A DNA stretch of 64,000 nt from Candidatus Omnitrophota bacterium (GCA_041651115.1 JBAZJY010000001.1:261165-325164), one strand, 5' to 3'; positions 14,921 to 50,089 are shown, numbered from the stretch's first letter. The notes: a model not told the origin generated them from the sequence alone. Numbers and translations are program-made.

Positions 14921-14957
14921 TTTATATTGTTGTTTTTTAAAACTGAGGAACATTGTA

Positions 14958-15509: not shown

Positions 15510-15606
15510 TATATTTGAAACGTAATTGGCTAAATCTGTTTAGTAATTTTATACGGCAGCTTCTGGATAGATGAGGGGCTGCTGTTTTCATTAAGGGGAC
15601 ATAGTC

Positions 15607-15888: not shown

Positions 15889-15892
15889 TAAA

Positions 15893-16363: not shown

Positions 16364-16423
16364 AAACTAAACTACCTTGAAAGACGAGTAGCATAATTGA
16401 ATAAAAGCAAGAGATGCTAAGCA

Positions 16424-17185: not shown

Positions 17186-17271
17186 TTCTACTTAGCGGAA
17201 TATTTAATTGAATATAAGCTGGGAGTTTCAAGGTCAATTTTTGGCTAGTCTATATCTAACCAGGAGGTCCT

Positions 17272-17724: not shown

Positions 17725-17771
17725 ATTTCTTAGAATATTCGAAGGCCAAAGAAGTTAGCCGGGAGGTAAAA

Positions 17772-18476
17772 TTGTTAGATTATCTTATTGAATCTATGAC
17801 TTATCTATCAGTTGATTATAACTGGTTTTTTAGCACCCTCTCTCAGTCTTTAGCAGCATTAATTGGGATAGGCTGCATGTTTATTATTTATCGATTGCAG
17901 ATGCAAGAAAATAATATCAATGAAACAGTACGAGCTTTACAACGTTATTTGTCCCCGATTCACCCGGACAAACTTTTTTATATGACTAGAGAAGAAACAA
18001 CAGCTATGGCTGATGGCGAAATTAATCATCATACGATACAGATAAAGCATTTTAAAGAGGAGATAGCGCAGTCTGAAGAAAAGCTTAAAAGAAGGGAAGG
18101 GAATGAAAGCTTTCTTAACGGAAGAATCCGGTCTTTATCAGAGAATATAAGAGTGGAATCTCTTAAAATCGACAGCCTTCAGAGTAGGAAGTCGGCCATC
18201 ATCCTTAAAGAAAATTATAGAGATGGGATTCAGTTTAGTGCTTTTATTTCCCTTGCATACATGGGTTTTTTATTTTTTGGAAGCTTAATTGCGCTTACGC
18301 ATGGTAACTTTTTCTTGAAACATCAAAAATTAGGGAATGGATTCGTATTAGCCACATTGATTCTTTTGCTCGGCGGTTTATTCTTATCTGGCATCTGTTG
18401 TCTTGTTGGGCTTAATATGGGGAGATCTATGGTAAAAGATATATTTATTAGATTTATTTCCCGCTGGCGGAAATAA
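17772..18476 (+). CDS. Hypothetical membrane protein with a central coiled coil.
   Basis: N- and C-terminal TM helices are present. No family was recognised. Confidence 0.45.
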   Translation: MLDYLIESMTYLSVDYNWFFSTLSQSLAALIGIGCMFIIYRLQMQENNINETVRALQRYLSPIHPDKLFYMTREETTAMADGEINHHTIQIKHFKEEIAQSEEKLKRREGNESFLNGRIRSLSENIRVESLKIDSLQSRKSAIILKENYRDGIQFSAFISLAYMGFLFFGSLIALTHGNFFLKHQKLGNGFVLATLILLLGGLFLSGICCLVGLNMGRSMVKDIFIRFISRWRK

Positions 18477-18790: not shown

Positions 18791-18868
18791 CGGGGCGTGG
18801 CTCAGTTTGGCTAGAGCGCTTGAATGGGGTTCAAGAGGTCACAGGTTCAAGTCCTGTCGCCCCGACCA
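18791..18868 (+). tRNA. tRNA-Pro(GGG), with CCA encoded.
   Basis: The acceptor stem is cggggcg/cgccccg, the D-stem is gctc/gagc and the anticodon loop is atGGGgt. The 3' end is acca. Confidence 0.8.
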
Positions 18869-24750: not shown

Positions 24751-26322
24751 ATGAAACAGGTAAAACTTTATGACACAACATTAAGGGACGGCGCGCAAGG
24801 CGAAGGGGTTTCTTATTCCGTAACGGATAAGGTGATGATCGCCCGCGAGCTGGACAGGTTCGGCATACATTATATTGAAGGCGGATGGCCGGGTTCCAAT
24901 CCCAAGGACAGGGAATTTTTCTCTAAAATGGCCAAGGTTAAGCTAAAAACTTCGCAATTGACCGCTTTCAGTATGACCCGCAGGCCGGGGATAAAAGCAA
25001 AAGAAGACCAGAATATCTCCGCGTTGGTAAAATCTCAGGCAAAGATCATCACCATCGTAGGAAAAACCTGGGATTTGCACGTTACGGATATTTTAAAAAC
25101 TACGCTGGAAGAGAATCTTTTAATGATCAAAGATACGGTAAGCTTCCTCGTATCCGAAGGCCTGGATGTTTTTTATGATGCCGAACATTTTTTCGACGCC
25201 TTTAAGGCGAACCGTGAGTACACCCTAAAAACGTTGCTTACCGCCCAGGAGGCAGGCGCTGTATCGGTTTGCCTTTGCGATACCAACGGCGGCAGCCTTA
25301 CTTCTGAAGTGGCGCGTATCGTCAAAGAGGTGCGGCCGTTGATCAAGGGGATACTGGGTATCCATTGCCATAATGACGCGGGCCTGGCAATCGCAAATTC
25401 ATTGGCTGCGGTCGAGGCAGGCGCGGATATGGTGCAGGGTACAATTAACGGCTATGGCGAGAGGTGCGGCAATGCCGACCTGATCCCGATCATTGCTAAC
25501 CTTAAATTAAAAATGGGCATTGACTGCATCGGCCGGGAAGGATTAAAGGATCTTGTTAAGCTTTCGCATTTTGTCGGCGAGATCAGCAATATGCGACAGA
25601 GGAATGACCAGCCATATGTCGGTACGTCGGCATTCGCCCATAAAGGCGGCATGCATATTAATGCGGTAATGAAAAATCCCGTTGCTTACGAGCACGCCGA
25701 TCCTTTGGCGGTAGGCAATCACCGCCGTTTCCTGATGTCGGAATTAGGCGGAAAGACCGGTATCCTTGTCCAGGCAAAGAACCTTGAGCTTGATTTAAGT
25801 AAGGATGATCCAAAAACAAAAAAAATCCTGCGCCTGATCCAGGACCTTGAGCATAAAGGGTATCATTTTGAAGCTGCCGAAGGATCTTTGGAGTTGCTGC
25901 TAAAGCGGGCGTTAAAAAAATATACGAAATTTTTTGAACTTGAAGGTTTCCGGGTGGTAATCGAGAAACAATCCGATAAAAAGATCACTACCGAAGCGGT
26001 AATGAAGCTCAAAGTCAAGGGCATTAAGGAACATACTGCCGCAGAAGGCGACGGCCCGGTAAACGCGCTGGATAATGCCCTGCGTAAGGCCCTGAAAGAA
26101 TTTTACCCCGCGCTTTCTAAAATGCGCCTCTCGGATTTTAAAGTGCGCGTGTTGGATGAGAAATCCGGCACTGCCGCGCGCGTACGCGTGCTGATCCAGT
26201 CGCAGGATGATTCCGACACCTGGAACACGATCGGAGTTTCCGAAAATATTATTGAAGCATCCTGGCAGGCGCTTGTGGACAGCGTGGAATATAAATTACT
26301 TAAAGACCTTAAAAATGGATGA
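24751..26322 (+). CDS. 2-isopropylmalate synthase / (R)-citramalate synthase family protein.
   Basis: The HMGL-like motif LYDTTLRDGAQGEG is present, followed by a LeuA-dimer C-terminal domain. The protein is 523 aa. Confidence 0.85.
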   Translation: MKQVKLYDTTLRDGAQGEGVSYSVTDKVMIARELDRFGIHYIEGGWPGSNPKDREFFSKMAKVKLKTSQLTAFSMTRRPGIKAKEDQNISALVKSQAKIITIVGKTWDLHVTDILKTTLEENLLMIKDTVSFLVSEGLDVFYDAEHFFDAFKANREYTLKTLLTAQEAGAVSVCLCDTNGGSLTSEVARIVKEVRPLIKGILGIHCHNDAGLAIANSLAAVEAGADMVQGTINGYGERCGNADLIPIIANLKLKMGIDCIGREGLKDLVKLSHFVGEISNMRQRNDQPYVGTSAFAHKGGMHINAVMKNPVAYEHADPLAVGNHRRFLMSELGGKTGILVQAKNLELDLSKDDPKTKKILRLIQDLEHKGYHFEAAEGSLELLLKRALKKYTKFFELEGFRVVIEKQSDKKITTEAVMKLKVKGIKEHTAAEGDGPVNALDNALRKALKEFYPALSKMRLSDFKVRVLDEKSGTAARVRVLIQSQDDSDTWNTIGVSENIIEASWQALVDSVEYKLLKDLKNG

Positions 26323-29901: not shown

Positions 29902-31143
29902 ATGAAAAAGATTTTTCTGGCGCTTAGCGTATGCGCGTTCACATTGCTATCTGGTAATGCCCCCATCGCGTGTTCGGAAACCGGTGATCCTTCAAGGATA
30001 GTTGTTTGCAGTGAAATATTTAATGCGCTGGGCAAAACTGCCGGCGCTTCTAAGGAAGCCGCGGCCATTTTAGCCGGGGCGTTGACGGATAAGGATTTTT
30101 TTATCCGCGCCTCCGCGGCCAAGTCTTTGGGGCTGTTAGGTGATAAAGATTCCGCGTTGATGCTTAAGAAATTGGCCGGAGACGAGAACTACCTTGTGAT
30201 GATCAATGCTACGGCCGCTTTGGTCCACCTTGGCTTATCCGGAGAAGATGCCTTGCTTGATCTGCTTAAAGACAACAGGTCCGAAGTAAGGGGAAACGTC
30301 TTGGGCGTGTTAACTACTTTTAAGGATCAACATCCGGATGTAATACTTGAAATGTTACGCGATGAAAAAAATGATTTTGTGCGCGAGCAGGCTTTGTTGA
30401 GGCTGGGAGAAAATAAATTTATCCAAGCGCAGGAAGTTGTTATTGCGGACACGGAAAACAAGGATCCCGGAGTACGGCAGGCAGCGTGTTTTGCCCTCGG
30501 GCAGATCGGCGGCCCTGAAGCCGGCAAGTTTTTACATAAACGGTTAAGCGATGATGATCCGAGGGTGCGTGCCAGGGCCAAAGAAGCCTTAAGTGTGATT
30601 GGAGACCGCTCAATAATCAGCCTGCTTTGGCAGGACGTAAAAGAAAGAAACGCGTTTTTACGCGGCAGTTCATATGTCGCATTAGCTAATTTAAAAGAAT
30701 TTGACGTTTTGCCGCTTGTCTTAAAGGAAATCATCAGCCCTGATAGCACCTCGCACGCAAGGGCTAAGGCCGCAGAAGCATTGGTGGTCTTGAGGCCGCA
30801 TGTTTCGGAGTTGTCCACCAAAGCGCTCTCCAGCTTGAATATCGGGTCTTTATCTTCGGATAATTTAGAAATTAGCTTTGACTATAAGATCGGCGGGCAA
30901 AGCTTGACAATGACGCTCATTGCCGCGATTAATGATGTTAAAAGCCCGCTGCATCAGGACGCGCCGCTGGTAATTACCATTATGGGGTTAATGGATTGCC
31001 TGCCTGCTTTGCATCAGGCTCTGTTAATGGGTGATCCGGATATGGCAGCATCAGCTGCCTCTGCTTTAGGCGAGATGAAAGATAGCAGCGCTACGGAATA
31101 TCTTATTCAAGCCTGCAAGAAATACGGATGTGGAAAAATTTAA
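29902..31143 (+). CDS. Secreted HEAT/PBS-lyase-like repeat protein.
   Basis: A signal peptide is present ([20 protein letters not shown]). Repeated …R..AA.ALG.LGD… HEAT-like units follow. Confidence 0.6.
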
Positions 31144-36667: not shown

Positions 36668-36695
36668 TTGACTAGGCGCGAAAATATGTTATACT
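36668..36695 (+). promoter_or_regulatory. Candidate promoter upstream of the giant-gene pair.
   Basis: TTGACT and TATACT are separated by 16 nt. The element lies about 190 nt upstream of the ATG at 36886. Confidence 0.3.
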
Positions 36696-36885: not shown

Positions 36886-39800
36886 ATGGCAATTAAATCC
36901 CCGTCCCTGCGCAAGCTCGTATCTCTACTTCTTACCTTCACCTTTCTCTTTACCCAAACCGGCTTTGCCCAGGTAGCAGCTGTTGAGCTTAACATCGGCT
37001 CGCACTTAGGAATCCTTGGCTCAAAGCTTTCTTCACCGGACAAGCTCCGCCTACCGCATTTAAGGTATTTCTCCTACGATAACCAAAATAACAATATCCA
37101 GCTTCTTTTAGATAAGGGAGACTTAAAGGACCTAAAAGACCAAGCCCTAGAGGATTCAGGAAAAGAGCTCCTAAAGTACTTCCTTATAGGCGTAACTCTT
37201 CCTGATGAGCACTTCTGGGTAAACCTTCGGCCTGATTCAGAAGAAAACATCATCCCTGAACTCTTAGCCAAGACTGATATCGGTAAAATCTTTCTTGAAG
37301 CAGATGTCCAGCTTAAAAAAGATACCGCAAGCCTAACCTCACCTAACAGCCCCCAGGGAAAGCTTTACTGGGACAAGCTCTATAAAAAAGCAGCCCAAAT
37401 CTACGGCACCCAGAATGTCACTATCCCCACCTTAACCCGTCCTTGGATTGTGCCAAATGAGATCATTATTCGCGAGTCAAAGGAAAGCGCTTACATCTAC
37501 AAGGCTACATTAAAGGTAATGTTAGAGCAGGACCACCTTAAAGGCTCGGTTAACTATAACTTTGAAGACTCCCGCGCCAAAGAACTCAATGAATATTCAT
37601 CAGAGCTTATTAGAGAACTCATCCTTCCTGAATTAACCAAGGAAGTAAACAATGCCAAACGCTATTCCCAGCTAAGACAGGTCTACTACTCTTTAATACT
37701 CGCACGCTGGTTTAAGGCCAGGTTCTACGGTAAAGGAGGCCTTTATGCTTCCTACATTAATAAAGCTAACCTAGAAGGCTTAACTTCTAACCAAAGCTGG
37801 TCAAAAGACACTTATTTTAAAGCTTACCAGTCTTCCTTTAAAGACGGCGAATATAATCTCCAGGCTACAGTAAACACCATCTCCGGCCCATCAATTAGAA
37901 GCTACTTCTCAGGCGGCATGGAATTCGGCCCTAATATGAACATTGTTACTCAAAACAGAAGCTCTGTCCCCATGATTGCCGGCTTCCAGGGTAAACTCTC
38001 AAGCCCCATGCTGATAAACGTAGGCATGAATAATGGCATGTCTTTACTTGTTGGCGCACCTACCATCAAGAATCCGATAATGCTGATGCAGGGAGTGGGG
38101 TCAAGCCCGGTTGATGAGGAGCCTAAGATTCCGAATATTAATCCTGAAGATGGGCGTATACCGGATCCTGAACCGACAGAAAACGAAAACCCTGGCGATG
38201 AGCCGGAAATTAATTATAACGATCATTCCTATGATGATCAGGAGGCGCCGGAGAAAGATGAAGAAGTTGGCTCCAGCCCGCTGACTACAGAAGAAATAAA
38301 GAACAATGCCAAGGCTGCTTTGGAGAAGTTAGTTAAGGATAATAAAGATTCGCAATTAATAAGAGAAGTTTCCGGCATTGTATTGAATGATAGGGCTAGA
38401 AACATAACTAGCCGTATATTTAAGAAGATTTCTCCCAATACGGCAAGCTCCTACGACAAAAAAATGAAAATCCTGCATCTACTCGAAACAGTTAGGCGTA
38501 GTCCAGTCCATAGTGATCTTAAAGCAGGCTGCGCGGAGGCCGCGTATTATATTAAGGAAAGAGATGATCTTGAATTTCTTAAGTGGAGAGGAAACACGGA
38601 AGTTTTTGGACCAGAACACAGGATAATCGCCAAGATGGCGGTTTTGTTTAAGACAAGAAAAGACGATGAAAGAAGTAAAATAGCACAAGAGATTATTGAT
38701 TTAGATAATAGTACGCACTATGAATCTTATCAGGTTGATTCCATGGCAAAATTTAAGACTTTATTCTATTCTGTCCAATATCTCTTTTCCGAAGACTTTG
38801 CCGCCGCCTCCAGTCCATTCAAAGTCGAACCTGTCAGTTCGTTAAAGGTATATTCTGATATTAACCAGCGCATTTGGCTTGACGGCCTGACTTTTGAGAT
38901 GCTGCTTTCAGGCGAGTTTGAAAAACTGGTGCGTGAGCATGGCATAAACGGCGTTACTACCAATCCCTCGCTCATTAAGGCTTATTTTAGCGACCAGCGG
39001 GTGATCGATAAGGCAAGGAAATTAGCTTCCGAAGGATTGGGCAAAAAAGAAATCTATTACCAGCTTGTCAGTGAACTGGCTAGAACTGCGCTGGAGATAT
39101 TCAAGAAAGCCGGTGTAGCCAATGCCAAATTCAGTGTTGAGTTGGATCCTACTGTCAATAATAGCAGCGTAGAAGAAGCTGTTGTGGAAGCAATGCAGTG
39201 GACTGACATTGATCCTGCGCACATGATGGTCAAGGTTGCCCTGACTTCCGACGCAAACGGCGTTGATACGGAAACCGGATATAAAATAATCGAAGAGGTA
39301 ATATCCCGCGGCCGCAATGTTAATGTAACGCTGATTTTCACTCCTGAACACTACAAAAAAGTCGTTCAGGCGTATATCAACGGCCTTAAGCGCGCGCTTC
39401 TTAATGTAAAGGCAGGCAAATTAAGCAAGGAAGAATTTAACCGGATTTATTCCGTTGCCAGCTTTTTTATCTCCCGTTGGGATGTTTATTTTGAGGAAAA
39501 TAAGCTTCTTGCTGATGGTGTGCATGGTAAAGCTGCTAATTCCATTGCGATCGAAGCCTATAATGAGATATTTAAATTCTTTTTCAGCGATGAAAATCCT
39601 GAATGGAAGCAGTTAAAAGATGATGCCGCGTCCATCGGCTGTGAAGTCAGGCCCCAGGAGTTCCTGCTTGCTTCCACCGGTTCTAAAGGCCCTGATATGC
39701 TTAAAAAAGGCGTCATTGATGAAAAAACCGCAGCCGAATATCCTGCCGGGATTTATGTGCATCCTTTGCAGGGCAGTTACGTCGTAAATACCCTTCCTTA

Positions 39801-42800
39801 TGGGACCATAAAACATCTGATTGAAAAGGGCGTGGCTAAGAATGAAGACGGCAGCATTGCGCAAACTATCGAATCCGGATATATCGCAAGTCAGGATGTG
39901 ATGGATTGGCTCAGAGACGCTTCCAGCATAACCGATGTAGGCGCCATACTGCTTAAGAACGCCACAACCGCCTTCCTGAAAGACTTTGCCGATATTCAGA
40001 ATACGCTTGAAGGGCTTGTCTCTGGAAAAACTTCCTCCCCGGTAAATGAACTACAGCGCGCAGACGTTAACCGGATGGTTGATGATTTATTGGGGATGTA
40101 TAAAGCAAAAGACGAGGTAGTAAGGATAGAGAAGCTGGAAGGGATTATCCGGCCTGCGGCCAAAGCCATAGAGGAATATCTTTATGGGCAGTTCGCCGAC
40201 CAGAAAATCGCCGCAAACATCTATGAGAAAGGTATGAAAAATATCATACCGAATCTTGCAAAATGGTATACCGATCCGTATATACAGGAATCTACGGTTT
40301 TAGGCATAGAAGATGCAGTAAAAGAAGGTTATTGGAAATTCATTGCCCAGGCTTATATGGCAAAAATAGCTTATGGCACTGCCGGCGTGCGCGGTAAATT
40401 TGCGTTCGGTAAATATTTCCAGCTGGTAGCTGAAGCAGCTAAGCAAGGAAAAGGCTTAAGGGTGCCTAATCTAAAAGGGCCGAATACCTTTAATGATGAA
40501 ATAGTCCGGCAGTTTACATTAGGAGTTTTAAAATTCCTGGAGAATCAGAATTCCGACCTGCCGAAATCAGGCCTGAAATTATTCACCGCTTATGACAGTA
40601 GAGTTGCAGGAAAAGAATTTGCCCAGATAATCAGGGATATTGGCCTGGCTTATGGGGTACAGGTTTATATTTCCGATGAAGCAATGCCTCTTCCGGAATT
40701 TTCCAACTCTTTAAAAGAGCTATCCGGAGGTAAGGCTGCGATCGGTATTTATATTTCCGCCAGCCACAATGTCAAGCCGGATAACGGCGTGAAATTGATC
40801 GGTGCAGACGGTATGCAATTAGGCGCTAATGACGTCCTGCGCAAGGCGGTAATGAAGGAATTTGACAGCGCAACGCTTAAAGAAGTAGCCGAGTTGCTTA
40901 AAAATTTACCTTCTGAAATACCGGCCGAACAGTTAACATTCATAGGCGGCAAAGAAGAAGAGAAGCTGCCGGGAGTTGAGTATGGAGATCATAAACTTAT
41001 TGATACCCATACCATGCATTTTAATGCCGTGCTTAAGCATGTTAAGGACCAGGAAGCAGTTAAGAAGTATGCTAAAGATATAAATATCCTTTATTGCGCT
41101 TTTCACGGCGCAGGCAGAAGGGCTGCTCCTCGCGTATTGGGCGCGTTGGGATTCAATGTGGAAAAAATAGAGAAGATGGATGCCCTGGACGGCACATTGC
41201 CTGAATTTGCAGATGCCGAGCCGCCGGATCCGGCGCTGGTTGCTTCTTGGAAAAAGGCGCTGCAGGCATATTTAAGTGAACACCGCAGGGAAGACCTGCT
41301 TAAGAAAGACCTTTTTAGCTCCAATGATCCTGACGCAGACAGGTATGGTGGAGTGATCAGGGTAAGTGCTGCAGAGATCCCTGAAGATGAGGCAGTTGCC
41401 GAAGCCATGGGCATAGCTTTCAAGCTTACCGAAGAGGAACAGGCAAAATATGGTTACGGTGGTTTTCGCGTGCTTCCGCCTAATGAATGGAATGCGCTGA
41501 TCGCTTTTTATGACCTGAAACGGTTAAAAGATCAGGGCAAACTTGACCCCAATAAGCATGTTTTAGTTTTTTCACATGTAACTTCGTACTTGATGAAAAA
41601 GATAGCTGATTATTTTGGTATAGCAGTAGTTATTAAGCCGGTAGGCGTGGATCAACTGGCTGATGAGATCGTAAAGCTGGAGAAGCAAGGCAAGATAGCT
41701 GTGAATGGAGCGGAAGAGAGCGGCACATATATGACCAGCGACCACATCCGCGACAAAGACGGCTTCCTGGCAGGCGTGCGCCTGGCAGAGATAGCCTGCG
41801 CTGCCCGCGCACAGGGCAAAACAATCAATGATCTCTTAAACGAGATATATCTTATCCCAGAGATCGGATTTTTCGCGACTACTAACTTCCCCATAGAATA
41901 CGAAGTCTCTGTTCCGGGGACTGCCGCGAAAATGGCTGCGGTAAAATTCCTGCAGAAAGACGTGAAGCCTTTGGTAGAAGAAAGAATACGCAAAGGAGAC
42001 AACCCGGTAATCGCAGGGTATAAGATACATGATGTAGACGAACAGACAGAATTCAGGTCTGGTAAATACGACGAGCCGCTTGAGTATCAGGGATATCCGG
42101 ATGCGGGTATCAGGTTCTACTTTAATCCGGAAAAAACAGGTTTTATCACTGACCGGCCGTCAGGAACCGGCCCTCAGCTGCGTTTCTACGCGCACCTGTT
42201 TTATCTTACGGAAGGGCTTGACCTGGCCGGGCTTAACACTTTGAAGAAAAACGCCTATGCCGAATGCCTAAAGGTGACGAAAGAATGGATGCGAATTACC
42301 CAGAGCAACGACATTAAGGCGCTTGTCAGTTCTCCGGTTGTCAATTCCAGGCAAATAGCAAAGGTACTTTCTGAAATGAAGAAGAATTCCGGATTGCCGA
42401 TATCAATCGCGCCGTCATTAACCGCTACTACCTGGAGTGGAGCTTTGCACGCGATTAATTTTTCCCGGCCTGTTTTTCGCAGGGTAGAACGGGAATCGCT
42501 GAATGAAGAAAGATTTACCGGAAAAACGGCTTTTACAAGCGCCGCGAGCGATACTGATGTAAAAGGCCTGACTACTTATGACGTCATAGCCGGTGAATTC
42601 AAGAGCGTGCGTACAGGTGAACAGGTGAGGGGCTTTATCACTGACCAAACTGCAGCGCTGCCCGAATATACCTATTTTATGCACCGCGGTATATTTGCTT
42701 CCCGTGAAGATATACAAAAAGCTTTTTATGACAACAAGATCCGTTTTGACATCACCGTTATTCCTCCGGGGATCTGGGGCATAGATTATGCTAAAACAGT

Positions 42801-44262
42801 GGGTCATTATCATAAGCCTATAGAGATGCCGGAGATCTATCAGGTAGTCAGTGGTGATGTGCTTTGGTTGATGCAAAAACTTGATAAAAACGGAAACGTG
42901 GAAGACTTTGTTACTGTTAGGGCCAAGGCAGGGGATATTGCGATCATGCTTCCCGGTTACGGCCATGTGAGCGTAAATCTTTCAGAAACTGCGCCGTTAG
43001 TCTTGGCGAACTGGTTGACTTGGAATCAAAGCTCTGAGTATGGATCGTTTAAAGATAAGGGCGGAGCTGCTTATTATGTGGTTAAAAATGGCGATGGCCA
43101 GCCGGAATTAAGGCCGAATCCCAAATATGTTGTAGCGCAGGGAACGCTTCCAGAACCGCGCCAGATGGTTGCTAAGGACGGCATTGAAGTATTTGGATTG
43201 AAGAGGGGCGAGCCAATTTATAATCTGGTAAAATTAGACGCGGAAGATTTTGCCAATAAGATTGATCACTTGAATAATCCAGCCAATTATGATAAAGAGC
43301 TGACTGTTGAGGCGACTTTAGATAAAGCTAACCCAGGGGATCGGATTACCTCCAGCTCACCGGTGAAAGACATCAAGTTTGAAGGTAAGAATGCCTTTAT
43401 ATCCGGAGAAGACATTGCTGCTTTAAAAGAAGGCAGGAAACATATTGAAGTAGGCATAAATGGCCAGCAGCTCATTACCATCACGGGCATTGCTTCATTG
43501 AAGCCGCAGGTTATTGCCGCGCAAACTGCTGATTATGAGATCCGGCAGAGGGCTACCACTGATAGCCACGAAGCAGTCCTGTTTAATTTTAAGAAAAAAC
43601 AGGGCGACGACGGAAATTACCATGCCGTCAAGGTGGCGTATCAGGCAATACAGGGCGGGCAGCTGGTTATTTCTTTCTGGGAATTAGGCAGGAATAACCA
43701 GTATTACGGACGTATTGTCAGCGCCTCCAGCCCGGTAAGAAAAAGTAAAGATGAGCTAGAAGAGTATGAAGTATCCAAGGGACGGACAGATGATGACGCT
43801 GGGTCTGAAATAGAGCCGGAAGAAGTGACGGATGACGCAGACCTATATCCTAATATGCCTGGCGAGGATAAGGATTCGGATGAAGATTCCTCTAGTCCTT
43901 TAGACAAAAAAGGCGGTATTGACTTCCGCTCGCTGCCTCTAACCATCCAGCCAGCAGGAAGCTTTAAGGAGCTGACGTTTTCACTGCCTCCTGCTAAACA
44001 GCTCGCCAGCATCAATATCTCAAAGGAATTAGTTGAGATCAAGAATATGGTTGATAAAGGAATCGCTCCTTCAGGTGAGAGAGTAAAGGACCTGGTTGCA
44101 GCCTGTTATCAGAAGAATGAGCTGGCCAGTCATCAGGAAGAGCTGATCTCATGTCTTATGCGCATATGTAAGCTTCAGGAAGACCTAGTCCTTCCGGTTG
44201 ATAATAGCCTAAAAGAAGCAATTGTAATTGTTGATTCACTAAATATAGCGTATGCACATTAA
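36886..44262 (+). CDS. Giant modular protein 1 (2458 aa). It comprises a signal peptide and a shared N-domain, a transaldolase-like module, an alpha-D-phosphohexomutase module, a cupin-type phosphoglucose isomerase module and a shared C-terminal domain.
   Basis: The RBS is aaggagag. The N-terminal signal peptide reads LLLTFTFLFTQTGFAQVAA. The TAL module carries GVTTNPSLI, MVKVALTS, NVNVTLIF and ASTGSK. The PGM module carries YGTAGVRG, ISASHNVKPDNG, DPDADR, GAEESGT and RPSGTGPQLRFY. The cPGI cupin module carries TVGHYHKPIEMPE and PGYGHVSVN. The modules are separated by SSP[VL] motifs. Confidence 0.8.
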   Translation: MAIKSPSLRKLVSLLLTFTFLFTQTGFAQVAAVELNIGSHLGILGSKLSSPDKLRLPHLRYFSYDNQNNNIQLLLDKGDLKDLKDQALEDSGKELLKYFLIGVTLPDEHFWVNLRPDSEENIIPELLAKTDIGKIFLEADVQLKKDTASLTSPNSPQGKLYWDKLYKKAAQIYGTQNVTIPTLTRPWIVPNEIIIRESKESAYIYKATLKVMLEQDHLKGSVNYNFEDSRAKELNEYSSELIRELILPELTKEVNNAKRYSQLRQVYYSLILARWFKARFYGKGGLYASYINKANLEGLTSNQSWSKDTYFKAYQSSFKDGEYNLQATVNTISGPSIRSYFSGGMEFGPNMNIVTQNRSSVPMIAGFQGKLSSPMLINVGMNNGMSLLVGAPTIKNPIMLMQGVGSSPVDEEPKIPNINPEDGRIPDPEPTENENPGDEPEINYNDHSYDDQEAPEKDEEVGSSPLTTEEIKNNAKAALEKLVKDNKDSQLIREVSGIVLNDRARNITSRIFKKISPNTASSYDKKMKILHLLETVRRSPVHSDLKAGCAEAAYYIKERDDLEFLKWRGNTEVFGPEHRIIAKMAVLFKTRKDDERSKIAQEIIDLDNSTHYESYQVDSMAKFKTLFYSVQYLFSEDFAAASSPFKVEPVSSLKVYSDINQRIWLDGLTFEMLLSGEFEKLVREHGINGVTTNPSLIKAYFSDQRVIDKARKLASEGLGKKEIYYQLVSELARTALEIFKKAGVANAKFSVELDPTVNNSSVEEAVVEAMQWTDIDPAHMMVKVALTSDANGVDTETGYKIIEEVISRGRNVNVTLIFTPEHYKKVVQAYINGLKRALLNVKAGKLSKEEFNRIYSVASFFISRWDVYFEENKLLADGVHGKAANSIAIEAYNEIFKFFFSDENPEWKQLKDDAASIGCEVRPQEFLLASTGSKGPDMLKKGVIDEKTAAEYPAGIYVHPLQGSYVVNTLPYGTIKHLIEKGVAKNEDGSIAQTIESGYIASQDVMDWLRDASSITDVGAILLKNATTAFLKDFADIQNTLEGLVSGKTSSPVNELQRADVNRMVDDLLGMYKAKDEVVRIEKLEGIIRPAAKAIEEYLYGQFADQKIAANIYEKGMKNIIPNLAKWYTDPYIQESTVLGIEDAVKEGYWKFIAQAYMAKIAYGTAGVRGKFAFGKYFQLVAEAAKQGKGLRVPNLKGPNTFNDEIVRQFTLGVLKFLENQNSDLPKSGLKLFTAYDSRVAGKEFAQIIRDIGLAYGVQVYISDEAMPLPEFSNSLKELSGGKAAIGIYISASHNVKPDNGVKLIGADGMQLGANDVLRKAVMKEFDSATLKEVAELLKNLPSEIPAEQLTFIGGKEEEKLPGVEYGDHKLIDTHTMHFNAVLKHVKDQEAVKKYAKDINILYCAFHGAGRRAAPRVLGALGFNVEKIEKMDALDGTLPEFADAEPPDPALVASWKKALQAYLSEHRREDLLKKDLFSSNDPDADRYGGVIRVSAAEIPEDEAVAEAMGIAFKLTEEEQAKYGYGGFRVLPPNEWNALIAFYDLKRLKDQGKLDPNKHVLVFSHVTSYLMKKIADYFGIAVVIKPVGVDQLADEIVKLEKQGKIAVNGAEESGTYMTSDHIRDKDGFLAGVRLAEIACAARAQGKTINDLLNEIYLIPEIGFFATTNFPIEYEVSVPGTAAKMAAVKFLQKDVKPLVEERIRKGDNPVIAGYKIHDVDEQTEFRSGKYDEPLEYQGYPDAGIRFYFNPEKTGFITDRPSGTGPQLRFYAHLFYLTEGLDLAGLNTLKKNAYAECLKVTKEWMRITQSNDIKALVSSPVVNSRQIAKVLSEMKKNSGLPISIAPSLTATTWSGALHAINFSRPVFRRVERESLNEERFTGKTAFTSAASDTDVKGLTTYDVIAGEFKSVRTGEQVRGFITDQTAALPEYTYFMHRGIFASREDIQKAFYDNKIRFDITVIPPGIWGIDYAKTVGHYHKPIEMPEIYQVVSGDVLWLMQKLDKNGNVEDFVTVRAKAGDIAIMLPGYGHVSVNLSETAPLVLANWLTWNQSSEYGSFKDKGGAAYYVVKNGDGQPELRPNPKYVVAQGTLPEPRQMVAKDGIEVFGLKRGEPIYNLVKLDAEDFANKIDHLNNPANYDKELTVEATLDKANPGDRITSSSPVKDIKFEGKNAFISGEDIAALKEGRKHIEVGINGQQLITITGIASLKPQVIAAQTADYEIRQRATTDSHEAVLFNFKKKQGDDGNYHAVKVAYQAIQGGQLVISFWELGRNNQYYGRIVSASSPVRKSKDELEEYEVSKGRTDDDAGSEIEPEEVTDDADLYPNMPGEDKDSDEDSSSPLDKKGGIDFRSLPLTIQPAGSFKELTFSLPPAKQLASINISKELVEIKNMVDKGIAPSGERVKDLVAACYQKNELASHQEELISCLMRICKLQEDLVLPVDNSLKEAIVIVDSLNIAYAH
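36928..38112 (+). repeat. 1.2-kb direct repeat, copy 1 (5' coding region of giant gene 1).
   Basis: This tract is near-identical to 44321-45505. About 900 nt are perfectly identical, then mismatches become increasingly frequent, with no indels. Confidence 0.85.
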
Positions 44263-47200
44263 TCCTCAAAAAAGGGGACGTTTCCGGGAAACGTCCCCTT
44301 TTTCAAGATTTATTTCCCTGCTTCTTACCTTCACCTTTCTCTTTACCCAAACCGGCTTTGCCCAGGTAGCAGCTGTTGAGCTTAACATCGGCTCGCACTT
44401 AGGAATCCTTGGCTCAAAGCTTTCTTCACCGGACAAGCTCCGCCTACCGCATTTAAGGTATTTCTCCTACGATAACCAAAATAACAATATCCAGCTTCTT
44501 TTAGATAAGGGAGACTTAAAGGACCTAAAAGACCAAGCCCTAGAGGATTCAGGAAAAGAGCTCCTAAAGTACTTCCTTATAGGCGTAACTCTTCCTGATG
44601 AGCACTTCTGGGTAAACCTTCGGCCTGATTCAGAAGAAAACATCATCCCTGAACTCTTAGCCAAGACTGATATCGGTAAAATCTTTCTTGAAGCAGATGT
44701 CCAGCTTAAAAAAGATACCGCAAGCCTAACCTCACCTAACAGCCCCCAGGGAAAGCTTTACTGGGACAAGCTCTATAAAAAAGCAGCCCAAATCTACGGC
44801 ACCCAGAATGTCACTATCCCCACCTTAACCCGTCCTTGGATTGTGCCAAATGAGATCATTATTCGCGAGTCAAAGGAAAGCGCTTACATCTACAAGGCTA
44901 CATTAAAGGTAATGTTAGAGCAGGACCACCTTAAAGGCTCGGTTAACTATAACTTTGAAGACTCCCGCGCCAAAGAACTCAATGAATATTCATCAGAGCT
45001 TATTAGAGAACTCATCCTTCCTGAATTAACCAAGGAAGTAAACAATGCCAAACGCTATTCCCAGCTAAGACAGGTCTACTACTCTTTAATACTCGCACGC
45101 TGGTTTAAGGCCAGGTTCTACGGTAAAGGAGGCCTTTATGCTTCCTACATTAATAAAGCTAACCTAGAAGGCTTAACTTCTAACCAAAGCTGGTCAAAAG
45201 ACACTTATTTTAAAGCTTACCAGTCTTCTTTTAAAGACGGCGAATATAATCTCCAGGCTACAGTAAACACCATCTCCGGCCCATCAATTAGAAGCTATTT
45301 CTCAGGCGGCATGGAATTCGGCCCTAATATGAACATCGTTACTCAAAACAGAAGCTCTATCCCCATGATTGCCGGCTTCCAAGGCAAGCTCTCAAGTCCT
45401 ATGCTGATGAAGATTGGCAATGAGAACGGCATGGTGAGCCTTATGGGCGCGCCGACGATTAAGAATCCGATAATGCTGATGCAGGGAGTGGGGTCAAGCC
45501 CGGTAAAAGAGATTGATCTTGAAAATGGCAGCTTCCCGATTATGTTTGACAATGGCAACATAATAATTGAAAGAAACAATGAAAATAATTTTACCCGGGT
45601 AAAGCTTCAAAATAAAAAAGGCGATATTTTTATGTTTTCTCTAGAGGATAAGATTTATTTCTTACCTGACGAGAAGATCGTTTCGGTAAAAGATGATGAA
45701 CCGGTATTTGATGTTCAGGTGCGGCTTAATGTTGAGATCAACGGCCGCGCAGTAAAGAGTATTAATTTTGATCGGGATATTACAAGGCCATACGAGCTTA
45801 GTATAAGTAACGATGAAGCCGGTAAAAAATTAACCGTGGCGTTAGACTCCAGGGTTTATGAACAGCTATTCAATACTGACGAGACTAAGAGGTTCCTTAT
45901 AAGCGAAGCAACAGCCACCAAAGGCGGGTATAAGCTGATCATAAAGGAAATGAACTCTAGCCCGGTTACGGTAGATTCGGGAAAAATATCCCGGGTGCTT
46001 GATGATGAACTTGTAAAAAACCTGTTAACTTGGCAGGGAAGAAACGGTAATCCTGCTATATGGTATATTGGCATTGAAGATTACAGTGAGACGCATCCCT
46101 TTACAGTTTCTGAAGCAGCCAGGAACAAGGTTAAGTTAGTAGATTATGCCTATAAGACGGTAGTGGATGCGGCCGAGCGATATCAACTTAATCCCCAGGA
46201 GAAAGTTAATTTGATCAACATTCTGGCTAAGCAGCTCAATTTTGCAGGAGCGGAAATCCAGGATAATCACGCAATCGTTTCCAAATACGATTATTATGAC
46301 CGTCTAAGGAATATAGCCGCTCAGGTAGATTCCAATGAACTAAAAACCTGGCTTCTGAACTCTGCTCTTCAGAACTCCGATCTGTCAAGAGGGGTTAATT
46401 ACTTTTCCGCGGCCGTAGATAATTTTGAGGACGATGTAGCGTGGGCCGGCAGTTATTTTAACCTTTACAGTAAAATCCCCAACAGCAAAGCATTTAAATA
46501 TACGCTGGCCATGCTATTGCTTAGTAAAAATCCGGCGCATCATGATGGCGCGATGTGGATCATAAATGAGAAACTCGGTGGTTACGATATCGGGAATCAA
46601 GATGGAGCGTGGCAGTTCTATAGGGAAGCAGTAATAGATGCATTGGGGAAAAAAGACGGGGACATAGCTGCTGAATATGCCGATCTTTTTGTAAAAAACG
46701 CGGCGAGAAAAATTGGTATATTAGCCGTCTCCAGTCCGCTGGCAAAAGATAGTAAGGAAGTTTTACAGAAAATTATGCAAAGCACCGATCCTCTCTGGAG
46801 CTATCCGTTGGATGCCTTAGAGTACCACTTAAAAAATAATCCCTCGCTTCTGCCTGTAGAAGATTATGCGCAGAATGCTAAAGGCGTAGAGGACTTCGTC
46901 GTTACGTTGGCAAAGAAAGCCAGAGAGTTACGCGATAAAGACAGCGTAGAAGGCCCGGCTTTAGGCGGCAGCTATCCCTATTATGGCATAATCTTTAACG
47001 TAGTGAGGTTGAGCTTAGATAAAATAGAAGTTTCCTCCGGATACAAGAAAGCAATACTTAATCTGTTTTCTGATATAGCCGGCTATGAAGACGTTAAAGA
47101 TAGTATCGGCGAAAATCTATCAGAGATGCTCAAGGCTTTAATTATAAAAGGCATTCTTAGTTCCGGAGAGATTATTGAGATCGCGCAAATGTTTTCGTTG

Positions 47201-50089
47201 ACCCCGAATACCCCCGAAGAGTATTCTGCGGGAATGATTGAAATAGCTATCCAGCATAAGCGTATTAACGCAGATGCTTATCTTGATTATGCCTTGCCGC
47301 TTATTGTAGGGGCAATAGAGAGAAGCCAGTTACCCGAATTCCATTTTAGTATTCTTGAGCCTAGGCATGTTTTAGAGATTGCCAAAGCCATTTGGCAAAA
47401 TGAACGGTTAAGCCTTAATGACAAAGGGTATCCGGATGCGCAGGAAGTGGATGAGTTTATTAAACAGGCAGATGAAAATATCTCCGCGATGCGCAAGAAT
47501 AAAGCATTATTTGACGGGCTATATCAGGACATACAAGCCGCAAAGCTTAAGTCACAAACCGAAACCGGCCTTGAAAGCTCTCCGATTAATGTTAGCGGTT
47601 TTGGAATACCGGAAGCAGCGGGAAATCGTATCAAAGCCGTAGCCGTACCGTCTGACAAAATCAACCATGACTTTTATACCCAGCTGAACAAAAAAGGCTA
47701 TGCCGTGGTTTTTTCCGATACGGAAGAGAATTTCGGCGCTTTTCTGCAGTCATTTGGCAAATATCAGATTCTTATCGGCAATGATAACCCCTTATTCATT
47801 AAACAAATGAGCGGGATGGGGGTAGTTTTAGAAGGCGATAAAGAAGAAAATAGCCGGAGGATAACGGATGCTTTAAAAAAATTCAATCCTCTGCCGCTGG
47901 AGGTAAAAAGATACGCAGGGCAGTTAGCAGATACCCTTGTGGGATCCGAACTGCGCGGTTATATTGACGGTTTGGATAAAGCCCTCTTGCGCGAGAAACT
48001 TATTCAGTTGTTTTCAAGCGAAAGGCCTATGGAGAGATTTGAGCGGGTAGTAGAATATAGGGATGCCGCTTATAAAGTAGAGATACACTGGAAAGATATC
48101 CTCTTGGGAGATTATGTCATATCTTTTAGGGTAAGCAATGCGAATGACAACAGCACGGTCAGCCTGATCTCTGTCCATTCATTTGACAGGAATGCTCCTG
48201 TCAACCGGACATTCCGGCTATTAGACCAGGCTAATGGTTTTGCTCCGCTGGCCTCCAGCCCGGTCAACGTAGGGGAAAAGGTAGCGGAATTCAAGCGGCT
48301 TATTCCTAGTGTAGAAAATTCGCAGATCAAGGTGATTGTAATGCCGTATACTGAGAATAGTTTTCTGCCTGCTTATTTTATGCTGGCGCTCATGTATAAG
48401 ATACCCGAAGGGTCATATTTAAATGATGCGTACAAAGAGGGCAAGGCTTACCGTTTTTATACTACCGGCGTAGATAAGGTTAGAGAACATACCGCAGCCA
48501 TGCTTTTGGGTAAGGCCAATGAGCTTGGCCCGCAGAACTGCCTGTTTATCAGCGCTGATCCGCAGAAGATAGAAGAAGCCCTTAAGTATGGCTGGAAGAC
48601 TGTATTATTGGGCAAAAACGCAGAAGACAATGCCCTGGCAGTAGCGGATATTTTAAATGGTAATGGGGCTATTGTCAGCTCGCCGGTGCAGGGGGAATTA
48701 GGCCAATTATTAATCAGGGACCTGTTGGGTTTAGATGAAACCCCGTCACCGGAAACAGCGCTTAAGTTATTACAGGAGAAGCTCGCATTCTATCAGAAAA
48801 AAGGCTTGTTTTATCGGTCAGGCGAATTTTATGTCCTTGAGGGATACATGGACGATGGGACAGCTTATAATGACTGGGTTGAAAATCCGATCCAGGCTTT
48901 GGTTCTAGCTATGCGTTTCAATAAGGAAAAGTATAAATTGGATCCGGCGACTAAGAAACTTTTGTTGGAGCAAATAGAGGGTTACCGGGAGGGTAAGTAT
49001 TATGTTTTTGAGGGAGGCGGTTTCTCTTTTTCCGTGGAAGATCCCGTAGAAGCTTATGGTATGGCCTTAGAGGATCAAGGATTAGGCAGCGGTATCGGAC
49101 AAAGCTCGCCGTTAGAGGGAGCACGCACGGTTAATGAACTGGGTGAGGCATTGGATGCATATATTGACAGCGGCTATTTTTTTGCTGACGGCTGGAACGA
49201 GCTTTTAAGCTACAGGGATAAGGCGGTCATCAGACGCTTGGGAGAACTGCTTAAAGCTAATGATGCCATGGTCACGGTAATAAGACAATTCATCAAGTCG
49301 CAGTCCAATACGCTTATTCCTTTCGGGATGGATTCGGATAAAGTGTATGAATATATGGAGAATGGGATATTTTCTTTTACGGAGGTCAGCTCTCCGGTGC
49401 AGGCGATAGATGTAATAATACATCCTGCCGAGGGTATAGATGATAAAATTATAAGAATATTAGAATCTCCCAAAACAAAAGAGTTGGTCATGCAAGTAGC
49501 TAAAGAGGCCGTTAATAAGGTAGTTGGTGCTGGTTTCTTGGGAGAGATTGACGGTCAAAAGTTAACCTATCGTTTTCAGGTAGAAAGAGACAAGGATAAC
49601 GTACCTGTAGATATTTCCTTTGACATACGCAATCTTCCTCTTACCCTAGATACTTTTGAACTCCCTAAGTATGATGTCTATGGCCATGCTGAAATAATCC
49701 TTGAAAGGCAATCCCAAAGCTCACCTGTAAATACCGAAGACGCTCATAAGAAAGGCGGTATCGACTTCCGCTCGCTGCCTCTAACCATCCAGCCTGTAGG
49801 AAGCTTTAAGGAATTGCAGTTTTCACTTCCCCCGGCTGAATCTTTAGCTCAAATCAACATCTCAAAGGAATTGGTTGAGATTAAGAGCATGGTAGATAAA
49901 GGAATCGTTCCTTCAGGTGAGAGAGTCAAGGACTTAGTTGCTGCCTGCTACCACAAACAGGAACTATCCAGCCATCAGGAAGAGCTGATGTCTTGCCTGA
50001 TGCGCATCTGCAAGCTTGAAGAAGATATGGTTATGCCTGCTAACGCCAGCCTTAAAGAAGCGATCGTGATTGTGGATAGTATAAAGTAA
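44252..50089 (+). CDS. Giant modular protein 2 (1945 aa). It shares the N-domain and C-terminal domain with protein 1, but its core consists of eight different modules of unknown function.
   Basis: The ATG at 44252 overlaps the end of gene 1 (ATGCACATTAA). Translation would read through the terminator hairpin before entering the shared signal-peptide region. The core modules are again delimited by SSP[VLI] motifs. Confidence 0.7.
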   Translation: MHINPQKRGRFRETSPFSRFISLLLTFTFLFTQTGFAQVAAVELNIGSHLGILGSKLSSPDKLRLPHLRYFSYDNQNNNIQLLLDKGDLKDLKDQALEDSGKELLKYFLIGVTLPDEHFWVNLRPDSEENIIPELLAKTDIGKIFLEADVQLKKDTASLTSPNSPQGKLYWDKLYKKAAQIYGTQNVTIPTLTRPWIVPNEIIIRESKESAYIYKATLKVMLEQDHLKGSVNYNFEDSRAKELNEYSSELIRELILPELTKEVNNAKRYSQLRQVYYSLILARWFKARFYGKGGLYASYINKANLEGLTSNQSWSKDTYFKAYQSSFKDGEYNLQATVNTISGPSIRSYFSGGMEFGPNMNIVTQNRSSIPMIAGFQGKLSSPMLMKIGNENGMVSLMGAPTIKNPIMLMQGVGSSPVKEIDLENGSFPIMFDNGNIIIERNNENNFTRVKLQNKKGDIFMFSLEDKIYFLPDEKIVSVKDDEPVFDVQVRLNVEINGRAVKSINFDRDITRPYELSISNDEAGKKLTVALDSRVYEQLFNTDETKRFLISEATATKGGYKLIIKEMNSSPVTVDSGKISRVLDDELVKNLLTWQGRNGNPAIWYIGIEDYSETHPFTVSEAARNKVKLVDYAYKTVVDAAERYQLNPQEKVNLINILAKQLNFAGAEIQDNHAIVSKYDYYDRLRNIAAQVDSNELKTWLLNSALQNSDLSRGVNYFSAAVDNFEDDVAWAGSYFNLYSKIPNSKAFKYTLAMLLLSKNPAHHDGAMWIINEKLGGYDIGNQDGAWQFYREAVIDALGKKDGDIAAEYADLFVKNAARKIGILAVSSPLAKDSKEVLQKIMQSTDPLWSYPLDALEYHLKNNPSLLPVEDYAQNAKGVEDFVVTLAKKARELRDKDSVEGPALGGSYPYYGIIFNVVRLSLDKIEVSSGYKKAILNLFSDIAGYEDVKDSIGENLSEMLKALIIKGILSSGEIIEIAQMFSLTPNTPEEYSAGMIEIAIQHKRINADAYLDYALPLIVGAIERSQLPEFHFSILEPRHVLEIAKAIWQNERLSLNDKGYPDAQEVDEFIKQADENISAMRKNKALFDGLYQDIQAAKLKSQTETGLESSPINVSGFGIPEAAGNRIKAVAVPSDKINHDFYTQLNKKGYAVVFSDTEENFGAFLQSFGKYQILIGNDNPLFIKQMSGMGVVLEGDKEENSRRITDALKKFNPLPLEVKRYAGQLADTLVGSELRGYIDGLDKALLREKLIQLFSSERPMERFERVVEYRDAAYKVEIHWKDILLGDYVISFRVSNANDNSTVSLISVHSFDRNAPVNRTFRLLDQANGFAPLASSPVNVGEKVAEFKRLIPSVENSQIKVIVMPYTENSFLPAYFMLALMYKIPEGSYLNDAYKEGKAYRFYTTGVDKVREHTAAMLLGKANELGPQNCLFISADPQKIEEALKYGWKTVLLGKNAEDNALAVADILNGNGAIVSSPVQGELGQLLIRDLLGLDETPSPETALKLLQEKLAFYQKKGLFYRSGEFYVLEGYMDDGTAYNDWVENPIQALVLAMRFNKEKYKLDPATKKLLLEQIEGYREGKYYVFEGGGFSFSVEDPVEAYGMALEDQGLGSGIGQSSPLEGARTVNELGEALDAYIDSGYFFADGWNELLSYRDKAVIRRLGELLKANDAMVTVIRQFIKSQSNTLIPFGMDSDKVYEYMENGIFSFTEVSSPVQAIDVIIHPAEGIDDKIIRILESPKTKELVMQVAKEAVNKVVGAGFLGEIDGQKLTYRFQVERDKDNVPVDISFDIRNLPLTLDTFELPKYDVYGHAEIILERQSQSSPVNTEDAHKKGGIDFRSLPLTIQPVGSFKELQFSLPPAESLAQINISKELVEIKSMVDKGIVPSGERVKDLVAACYHKQELSSHQEELMSCLMRICKLEEDMVMPANASLKEAIVIVDSIK
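44274..44303 (+). terminator. Rho-independent terminator/attenuator between the giant genes, lying inside the 5' coding region of gene 2.
   Basis: A perfect 11-bp stem ggggacgtttcc-ggg-aaacgtcccc is followed by ttttt. Confidence 0.6.
44321..45505 (+). repeat. 1.2-kb direct repeat, copy 2 (5' coding region of giant gene 2).
   Basis: It matches copy 1 at a constant offset of 7393 nt. Confidence 0.85.

Follow-up and report, generated by a model that had tools for sequence, protein, structure and literature searches.

The ubiquitous and as yet uncultivated Omnitrophota are ultra-small bacteria that probably depend on a host, and their long or giant multi-enzyme proteins are a recognised puzzle. 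In two preprints on such giant proteins (bioRxiv 10.1101/2023.11.21.568195; 10.64898/2026.06.07.730766), these are chains of 10-147 thousand amino acids (kaa), mostly with many transmembrane (TM) helices, which are predicted to be secreted or membrane-associated and in which TPI, GPI, FBPase, PGM/PMM, FBA and PPDK domains are embedded, forming what the second preprint terms 'multi-enzyme metabolic clusters' (bioRxiv 10.64898/2026.06.07.730766). The authors suspect post-translational cleavage, for which C39 or S8 peptidase domains are held responsible, and call the cleavage points unknown; the 'Archaeovorins' exceed 30,000 amino acids (aa) and combine multiple TM helices with C39/S8 peptidase or SecA-like domains (West-Roberts et al. 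2023, bioRxiv 10.1101/2023.11.21.568195). Here we describe G1, a 2458-aa protein encoded in a 64,000-nucleotide stretch of DNA from a Candidatus Omnitrophota bacterium (GCA_041651115.1, JBAZJY010000001.1:261165-325164; hereafter the window), in which a transaldolase (TAL), a phosphohexomutase and a cupin-type phosphoglucose isomerase (cPGI) are strung between two end domains, N-dom and C-dom, with the tripeptide Ser-Ser-Pro (SSP) at every module boundary, together with the family of proteins that share these ends.

With the giant proteins of the two preprints G1 shares the phylum and the puzzle of metabolic enzymes in an extracytoplasmic setting. It differs from the Archaeovorins in its length, in having a signal peptide only and no TM segment, and in carrying none of the C39, S8 or SecA-like domains. 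Neither N-dom nor C-dom nor the SSP junction is described under cleavage, linker or motif terms in the preprints, and we found no earlier description of the family or of the motif in the literature. That metabolic domains occur in Omnitrophota giant proteins had already been noted in the preprints; the end-domain scaffold and the junction motif appear to be new.

A comparable plan is seen in the MARTX toxins, in which constant ends frame a variable effector cassette whose modules are shuffled between paralogues or strains and are freed by cleavage at short sites, and which possess glycine-rich repeats, type I secretion, a built-in cysteine protease domain and toxin cargo. The G1 family likewise places constant ends around shuffled modules with short inter-module sites, whereas G1 carries a Sec signal, lacks both repeats and a recognisable protease (Pfam gives no such matches) and has metabolic enzymes as cargo; no relationship of sequence or fold connects the two, the end domains of G1 having unmatched folds. 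The recurrence of a short linear motif at domain boundaries is also found in viral polyproteins, the P97/P102 adhesins of Mycoplasma hyopneumoniae (S/T-X-F↓X-D/E, the arrow marking the cut) and the gingipain polyproteins, for all of which protease and cleavage have been demonstrated; the cut sites of G1 are candidates. Fusions of neighbouring pathway enzymes are known, for example the PGK-TIM of Thermotoga, and bifunctional TAL/PGI enzymes use a PGI of the SIS type. G1 resembles the bifunctional transaldolase/phosphoglucose isomerase of NCBIfam (NF007080) in having TAL and PGI on one chain, and differs from it in the cupin type of its PGI and in its TAL part, which matches at 128 bits against a cut-off of 712. 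A signal peptide and a conserved terminal domain on many unrelated cargo proteins of one genome are features of the C-terminal domain of the type IX secretion system (T9SS) and of the TPS domain of two-partner secretion; the likeness to G1 lies in this signal and conserved terminal domain on varied cargo, no similarity of sequence or structure having been found, and we know of no T9SS or two-partner secretion in Omnitrophota. Finally, sugar enzymes of cytosolic type are directed outward by other host-dependent or predatory organisms, as in reports of a secreted microsporidian hexokinase (PMC6460350) and of 'moonlighting' enzymes in outer-membrane vesicles of Myxococcus (PMC10141889); in contrast to G1 these are single enzymes rather than strings, and the export routes are unrelated.

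G1 is a single open reading frame (ORF) at 36886..44262 on the plus (+) strand, on which the parts of G1, the neighbouring gene G2 and the candidate promoter described below also lie, and its frame is unbroken over 7.4 kb with the junction motif in frame throughout. The stretch 38836-43336, to which a sequence-only reading of the window had drawn attention as a fusion of the three enzymes, corresponds to aa 651-2150, i.e. to the middle of the ORF, and the enzymes account for only about 60% of the length of G1, the rest being signal, end domains, two further modules (A and E) and spacers. The SSP sites divide the protein into eleven pieces, the first of which comprises signal and leader (aa 1-48). 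N-dom (aa 49-371; 37030..37998), with SSP on either side, is followed by a linker region (37999..38271) made of a Met/Gly-rich segment of 34 aa (372-405) and an acidic spacer (406-462; 20 Asp or Glu in 57 aa), each of which begins with SSP; in the AlphaFold model aa 347-405 have a confidence score (pLDDT) below 50. Cargo module A (aa 463-641, 179 aa; 38272..38808) lies between SSP463 and SSP642 and has no Pfam match and no relative among the sampled family proteins. It is followed by the TAL module (aa 642-1049; 38809..40032), the alpha-D-phosphohexomutase module (aa 1050-1814; 40033..42327), the cPGI module (aa 1815-2156; 42328..43353) and, between SSP2157 and SSP2281, cargo module E (aa 2157-2280, 124 aa; 43354..43725), again without a Pfam match; both A and E also lack a match in the PDB. 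A second acidic spacer (aa 2281-2335; 43726..43890; 21 Asp or Glu in 55 aa), with SSP at both ends, leads to C-dom (aa 2336-2458 plus the stop codon; 43891..44262), in which a GGIDFRxLPxxIQPxG peptide precedes a helical bundle with conserved Cys.

The N-terminus of G1 (aa 1-28; 36886..36969) reads MAIKSPSLRK-LVSLLLTFTFLF-TQTGFA↓QV, with positive charges at K4, R9 and K10, a hydrophobic core of about 12 residues and small residues at -3 and -1, an anatomy from which, read by eye, it is predicted to be a Sec-type signal with a signal peptidase (SPase) I site at the arrow. The segment F-x-Q-x-G-F-A-Q of this region is nearly invariant in alignments across the family. Of the 'signal or anchor' that the sequence-only reading had proposed, together with a membrane-tethered metabolon, the signal is borne out by this anatomy while the tether does not fit, because the core is short, is followed by a cleavable SPase-type site (GFA↓Q) and has no further hydrophobic segment behind it: no 19-residue window anywhere in G1 reaches TM-grade hydrophobicity.

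The three enzymes named by that reading were recovered by Pfam in the same order on the one ORF, and all eleven catalytic motifs quoted for them occur exactly once at their places; the TAL lysine, the mutase serine and the cupin His and Glu residues, at which a misalignment would have counted against the identifications, are in register with solved structures. These alignments confirm that G1 carries a TAL, a divergent phosphohexomutase and a cPGI with catalytic residues in register. For TAL, Pfam TAL_FSA (PF00923, class I aldolase) matches aa 663-1040 over profile positions 1-284 of 285 (E = 1.2e-34, 120 bits against a cut-off of 27), and in the alignment to 3r5e the Schiff-base lysine of MVKV stands in register with MIKI, with GVTTNP/GVTTNP, VNVTLIF/VNVTLIF, SFFISRWD/SFFVSRVD and ASTGSK/ASTGVK also aligned. 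The module falls below the NCBIfam equivalog cut-offs (176 bits against 367 for NF002881, 99.5 against 234 for TIGR00876) and its best stand-alone homologues in a collection of 5.8 billion proteins are only 31-34% identical to it, which together mark it as a divergent lineage; TAL modules at the same position in the family members L001, L002 and P0124 are 73-74% identical.

The mutase module is enlarged, with 765 aa against about 450 in stand-alone enzymes and about 145 extra residues at its N-terminal side. Pfam identifies PGM_PMM_I (aa 1200-1326, 3.8e-19), PGM_PMM_II (1380-1488, 2e-7) and PGM_PMM_III (1545-1654, 9e-13); for domain IV G1 gives no Pfam match, yet the phosphate loop RPSGTGP is present at aa 1757. 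In the alignment to GlmM (9g69) the phosphoserine loop ISASHNVKPDNGVK pairs with ISASHNPALDNGIK, the Ser being retained and the Pro of SHNP replaced by Val, and the sugar loop GAEESG pairs with GGEQSG; the metal loop DPDADR lies at aa 1481. GlmM-type models are also the best NCBIfam matches, with 81 bits against a cut-off of 439, a score so far below threshold that 'PGM' is for G1 a superfamily call only, and the mutase of L001, the closest orthologue, is not BLAST-similar to that of G1. For cPGI, PF06560 matches aa 1930-2072 (E = 2.5e-29, 102 bits against a curated cut-off of 20.7), and the His-His-Glu-His metal ligands are in register with those of 1j3p, a cupin enzyme of the Thermococcus type: TVGHYHKPIEMPEIY aligns with TKGHYHSKIDRAEVY, GHYHKPIEMPE with GHYHSKIDRAE and, around the distal His, PGYGHVSVN with PYWAHRTIN, so that GYGH falls on YWAH.

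Given that all NCBIfam scores of the G1 modules lie far under the curated cut-offs, that the mutase is enlarged, has SHNV for SHNP and lacks a match for domain IV, and that a strict PROSITE-style PGK signature is found in only one family ORF against at least 11 with Pfam PGK, the modules could serve as adhesins, binding modules or toxins toward prey rather than as catalysts, and secreted glycolytic enzymes with non-metabolic roles are reported for predators and parasites (PMC10141889, PMC6460350). We regard moonlighting or pseudo-enzyme cargo as quite improbable, however, since at every catalytic position examined in G1 the residue is kept and aligns in register, the metal ligands of cPGI are conserved in most of its paralogous copies, and the active-site Cys motif of GAPDH is kept in three family members (L035, L038 and L070) despite an overall depletion of Cys described below.

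The family to which G1 belongs, in our reading one of modular carriers specific to the Omnitrophota, is defined by its two ends; for the pair of constant domains around a variable middle we name its members 'bookended' proteins. N-dom comprises about 320 aa, with about 50 invariant residues that include FWVNLRPD, LEADLQLKKD, TRPWIVPxE, LEQD and RSYFSGG, and has a confident alpha/beta core in the AlphaFold model (pLDDT > 85); C-dom comprises about 120 aa, with the pattern GGIDFR...QPxG...AAC. Nothing in the PDB by sequence, in Pfam or in NCBIfam corresponds to either of them, and the N-dom fold is unmatched among solved folds. More than 350 homologues of N-dom are 50-65% identical to it, and overall it is 50-73% identical to more than 400 Omnitrophota sequences; where the source is named the labels are almost all Omnitrophota or Omnitrophica, a few being generic or probably mis-binned. 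In GTDB species genomes 436 matches were confirmed, several per genome. C-dom was found in 829 cluster representatives at E <= 0.001 (of 1.84 billion), in proteins of up to 3.6 kaa, a count that comes from an exhaustive search, the word-index search having listed N-dom proteins of at most 704 aa only and a single C-dom match; in all 150 matches listed, no more than about 25 residues separate the end of the match from the C-terminus. C-dom is present in 52 of 57 complete ORFs with N-dom, and N-dom stands at the N-terminus in 84 of the 149 best C-dom matches, the remainder of which look like fragments. The two domains co-occur in hundreds of Omnitrophota proteins, and family members range from 0.5 to 3.7 kaa.

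At the short end of this range, cargo-less members of 537-620 aa (P0062, P0038 and P0046, with 537-609 aa, are examples) consist of the signal, N-dom, a disordered linker containing SP and C-dom, which suggests that the two ends form a functional unit by themselves. In the model of P0062 the GGIDFRxLPMxIQPMG peptide of C-dom is disordered though highly conserved, and the helices, with their conserved cysteines, have a pLDDT of 68-83. A sortase-like reading of LPMTIQ in C-dom was rejected on inspection, as no Gly follows and neither a TM segment nor a charged tail is present. The fusion of enzymes in G1, which the sequence-only reading had called unusual, turns out to be one of hundreds that share constant ends with swapped cargo, and we hold with high confidence both that G1 is a member of this family and that its enzymes are real.

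Directly downstream of G1 lies a tandem paralogue, G2 (44252..50089; 1945 aa), which has the same signal, N-dom and C-dom and whose start overlaps the end of G1 by 11 nucleotides (nt). The two proteins are 99.7% identical over aa 49-371 and 80% identical over the last 123 residues, with nothing related in between. The cargo of G2 consists of nine SSP-delimited modules of 95-282 aa, none of which has a match in Pfam, NCBIfam or the PDB; relatives of two of these modules occur in L001 and L003. At the DNA level the N-dom regions are 100% identical over 908 nt (36928-37835 and 44321-45228) and then diverge abruptly, reflecting either a recent gene conversion or an assembly collapse. The GC skew becomes negative in both 908-nt copies. 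A repeat of this type can mislead assemblers, so that G1 might represent adjacent genes joined by an assembly or sequencing error, or a chimera formed through the repeated N-dom. The likelihood of such an artefact appears minimal, as hundreds of independent assemblies show this architecture, the syntenic locus in L002 holds an orthologue whose TAL module is the same, and the 7.4-kb frame runs uninterrupted with its junction motif in frame.

The cargo of the family was surveyed by Pfam over 81 relatives, with per-protein tables for eight of them. Most of the recognisable cargo consists of central-carbon enzymes, namely PGK (12 proteins), cPGI, PGM, TAL, GAPDH, enolase, TIM, iPGM, class II aldolase, archaeal-type FBPase, transketolase, PPDK and GH94 glucan phosphorylase; guanylate kinase, DnaJ, HD, FHA, metallophosphatase, radical SAM, methyltransferase and HATPase domains and HEAT, TPR and WD40 repeats are found besides. 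Modules move between paralogues: the TAL module recurs in six family proteins, and the cPGI module of G1 in seven others, at 48-65% identity and at differing positions. Between its N-dom and C-dom the 3609-aa protein L035 (9968-20794) carries GAPDH, PGK, a GatZ/aldolase-like module, TIM and enolase, an order that matches classical gap-pgk-tpi-eno operons.

Such an inventory would suit a housekeeping role in the cytoplasm, in which the family would represent the cell's own central carbon metabolism as in-frame fused 'operons', either cut at SSP in the cytoplasm or left uncut, with the N-terminal hydrophobic stretch and N-dom serving only to tether or organise the chain on the membrane's inner face. 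The cargo spans nearly the whole route from glucan phosphorolysis to pyruvate, with the operon-like order of L035 and with catalytic residues intact, the active-site Cys motif of GAPDH included; family genes lie among groEL, guaBA, dnaE, gyrAB and glmS; the cargo TAL has no close stand-alone relative (31-34% identity at best); and every cargo type needs cytoplasmic cofactors. We nevertheless consider a housekeeping polyprotein unlikely. The signal is canonical, conserved and of the cleavable type, and by the positive-inside rule the remainder of the chain would be placed outside. In addition, Cys makes up only 0.24% of family cargo (median 0.18%) against 1.16% (median 1.13%) of the neighbouring genes in the same genomes, an approximately fivefold depletion relative to these cytoplasmic neighbours (Mann-Whitney p = 8e-33, 78 loci), which in the window takes the form of 0.33% and 0.21% in the two cargoes against 1.02%; that exported proteins exclude Cys is a well-established trend. 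A canonical stand-alone enolase lies next to a family gene in at least one genome (L048) and is the one stand-alone glycolytic gene that strict motif scans found in about 0.24 million amino acids of flanking sequence, a sample too small to decide the matter.

The junctions between the modules are marked by the tripeptide SSP. G1 has 10 copies of it and G2 has 11, against means of 0.46 and 0.43 and a maximum of 4-5 in 20,000 composition-matched shuffles, and a single copy is found in the 15,061 aa of the window's remaining 39 ORFs. In G1 the mark has the form S-S-P-[V/L/I/M/F] at each module boundary (10/10 junctions), and all ten sites fall outside the domain cores delimited by Pfam and AlphaFold (chance about 0.002), SSP372 and SSP406 lying within the segment of pLDDT < 50. 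A logo of 135 sites from SSP-rich relatives gives only [S/A/G/V/T]-S-S-P-[V/I/L], a core of five residues on either side of which there is no constraint. The codons of the motif vary from site to site, Ser being encoded by TCN or AGY and Pro across CCN, so that the conserved object is the peptide and not the DNA or RNA; a junction signal at the nucleotide level, such as a recombination site or RNA element, was ruled out on this ground. The notion that SSP is a by-product of low-complexity linkers rich in Ser and Pro was likewise set aside, as the flanks are unconstrained and are not rich in these residues beyond positions -1/-2.

Comparison across the family is in keeping with selection on the peptide. 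In L001 and L002, SSP is kept at homologous junctions while the flanks have diverged, and at the C-terminal edge of cPGI in distant members either SSP is kept or AGSP or ASSA takes its place. The majority consensus of 32 metagenome-wide representatives has SSP after N-dom and before C-dom, and the equivalent linker after N-dom contains xSP[VILM] in 55 of 70 family members. Relative to expectation, pooled family cargo is enriched 6.6-fold in SSP and 38-fold in SSPV, and family ORFs contain 0.86 SSP[VIL] sites per kaa where neighbouring ORFs (238 kaa) contain 0.05. The use of SSP depends on lineage, the clade of the window marking nearly every junction. Its presence at every module boundary of G1 lends strong indirect support, at the level of sequence, to the idea of a polyprotein that had accompanied the first description of the fusion, with cleavage as the putative step.

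The reading that we favour, at about an even chance of being right, is that G1 and its relatives are exported modular polyproteins which are processed at the SSP junctions and whose enzymes act outside the cytoplasm of the producer. That the chain is exported and cut at SSP, what its end domains do and where its enzymes work are inferences. The signal peptide and the depletion of Cys point to an extracytoplasmic fate, and activities of cytoplasmic type that carry an export signal, as shuffled modules on a constant carrier, resemble effector-delivery systems. The chain would pass through Sec unfolded, and the end domains would serve export, anchoring or delivery; the SSP marks, placed in exposed linkers, would be the processing sites, and cutting there would turn the string into individual, catalytically competent enzymes. 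The released enzymes may then act in the periplasm, at the cell surface or in the cell contents of attached or lysed prey, where TAL, mutase and PGI would interconvert glucose 1-phosphate, glucose 6-phosphate and fructose 6-phosphate and link them to the pentose-phosphate pool, while sister proteins would provide the remaining glycolysis.

Several observations weigh against export and cleavage as proposed here. Many family members have one or two xSP sites or none, and the existence of such SSP-poor members means that the family as a whole cannot depend on being cut at SSP. Neither G1 nor G2 has a recognisable protease domain, and when 806 flanking ORFs from 78 loci were clustered, only housekeeping neighbours emerged and no conserved neighbour, protease or secretion gene. 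The sequence S-S-P-hydrophobic could also serve as a structural break or helix N-cap, or be the target of a modification, instead of being cut. The cofactors of the cargo, moreover, are cytoplasmic (nucleotides for PGK and PPDK, NAD for GAPDH, thiamine diphosphate for transketolase, Fe-S and S-adenosylmethionine (SAM) for radical SAM, besides chaperone partners), which makes a periplasmic or extracellular site hard to reconcile with activity unless the target is the cytoplasm of another cell; and if the cargo enzymes are the only glycolytic enzymes of the cell, their export would leave it without glycolysis.

Some of these points would be accommodated if the chain were exported and left uncleaved, as 'enzymes on a string' at the surface or in the periplasm, forming a scaffold that channels sugar phosphates, with SSP as a break or as a site of O-glycosylation or phosphorylation. 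An uncleaved string shares the signal peptide and the Cys depletion with the processed polyprotein, and it would call for no protease, none having been found in G1, in G2 or in their neighbourhood; Ser and Pro followed by a hydrophobic residue would make a plausible helix N-cap or linker element, the SSP-poor members show that the architecture works without the exact motif, and consecutive pathway enzymes on one chain favour channelling. We doubt it all the same, because an exact tripeptide with varied codons and free flanks at every junction looks more like a recognition motif than a generic linker, because SSP also brackets N-dom, C-dom and the spacers, which fits the release of parts better, and because module order differs between paralogues, against a channelling geometry.

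A more specific form of export and cleavage would meet the objection from cofactors. Candidatus Velamenicoccus archaeovorus, a predator among the Omnitrophota, is reported to make open cytoplasmic contact with its victims and to transfer RNA into them (PMC13153191). On the N-dom/C-dom scaffold, which would be dedicated to this task and of a new fold, SSP-punctuated polyproteins of central carbon metabolism may enter the cytoplasm or lysate of an attached prey cell and be cut there, a speculative proposal to which we give a low probability. Were it true, the freed enzymes would turn the sugar-phosphate and cofactor pools of the victim into products that the nanobacterium can take up, an 'outsourced glycolysis' that extends from glucan phosphorylase by way of PGM, PGI, TAL, transketolase and the enzymes of lower glycolysis to PPDK, and N-dom and C-dom would constitute a new protein-delivery system.

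The window in which G1 and G2 lie is an ordinary segment of a bacterial chromosome, with every credible gene on the plus strand. A secretin gene (PF00263 with an STN domain; 15-1523, (+), about 15 nt from the window edge, with a GTG start as listed), whose presence shows the organism to be a diderm with an outer-membrane secretion or pilus channel, is followed by RNase G, ftsH, folP, a c-di-AMP cyclase gene, pdxJ, four tRNAs and gpsA, then by low-GC ORFs of no assigned function, hom, thrC, an ApgM-type mutase gene, aspartate kinase and a leuA-like gene, then by valS, nadC, a HEAT-repeat protein, uvrB, coaX, groEL, G1 and G2, and finally by guaB, guaA, dnaE, hisS, aspS, a LysM protein gene and phoH. 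The L002 locus is syntenic (groEL, family gene, guaB, guaA, dnaE) and has one family gene instead of two. In the spacer between groEL and G1 a consensus scan gives a candidate sigma-70-type promoter, TTGACT-16-TATACT with TG (36668..36695), which agrees at 10 of 12 consensus positions; the evidence is weak, shuffles of the region yielding about as many sites.

Other features of the window are recorded for completeness. The low-GC stretch at 13424-18476 (0.36-0.37 against about 0.47) contains a bacterial PH-domain protein and five ORFs without a Pfam match, is followed by a tRNA at 18791-18865, and is possibly an island. The ApgM-type gene of the cofactor-independent phosphoglycerate-mutase family (PF10143; 22282-23481, (+)) lies inside the cluster from hom and thrC to aspartate kinase. 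Its product may be a mutase-family analogue of homoserine kinase and not a glycolytic enzyme. The ORF of valS, with its start as listed, overlaps the end of the leuA-like gene by 116 nt (26207-26322), and its true start is probably further downstream. Between nadC and uvrB a stand-alone HEAT-repeat protein of 413 aa is encoded (29902-31143, (+)), HEAT repeats being also a recurrent cargo of the family.

Among the multi-enzyme proteins of the Omnitrophota, G1 offers a compact and tractable case, with 2.5 kaa and three assayable enzymes. It also provides handles on the wider puzzle: [small]-S-S-P-[V/I/L] as a candidate motif for junctions or cleavage, two family-defining end domains and a strong signature of Cys depletion. 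If it is these cargo modules that metabolic reconstructions of the phylum count as its enzymes, a statement such as 'Embden-Meyerhof glycolysis present' may describe enzymes that are inactive in the organism's own cytoplasm. Whether the family represents an exported glycolysis or a bacterial housekeeping polyprotein, either would be new biology.

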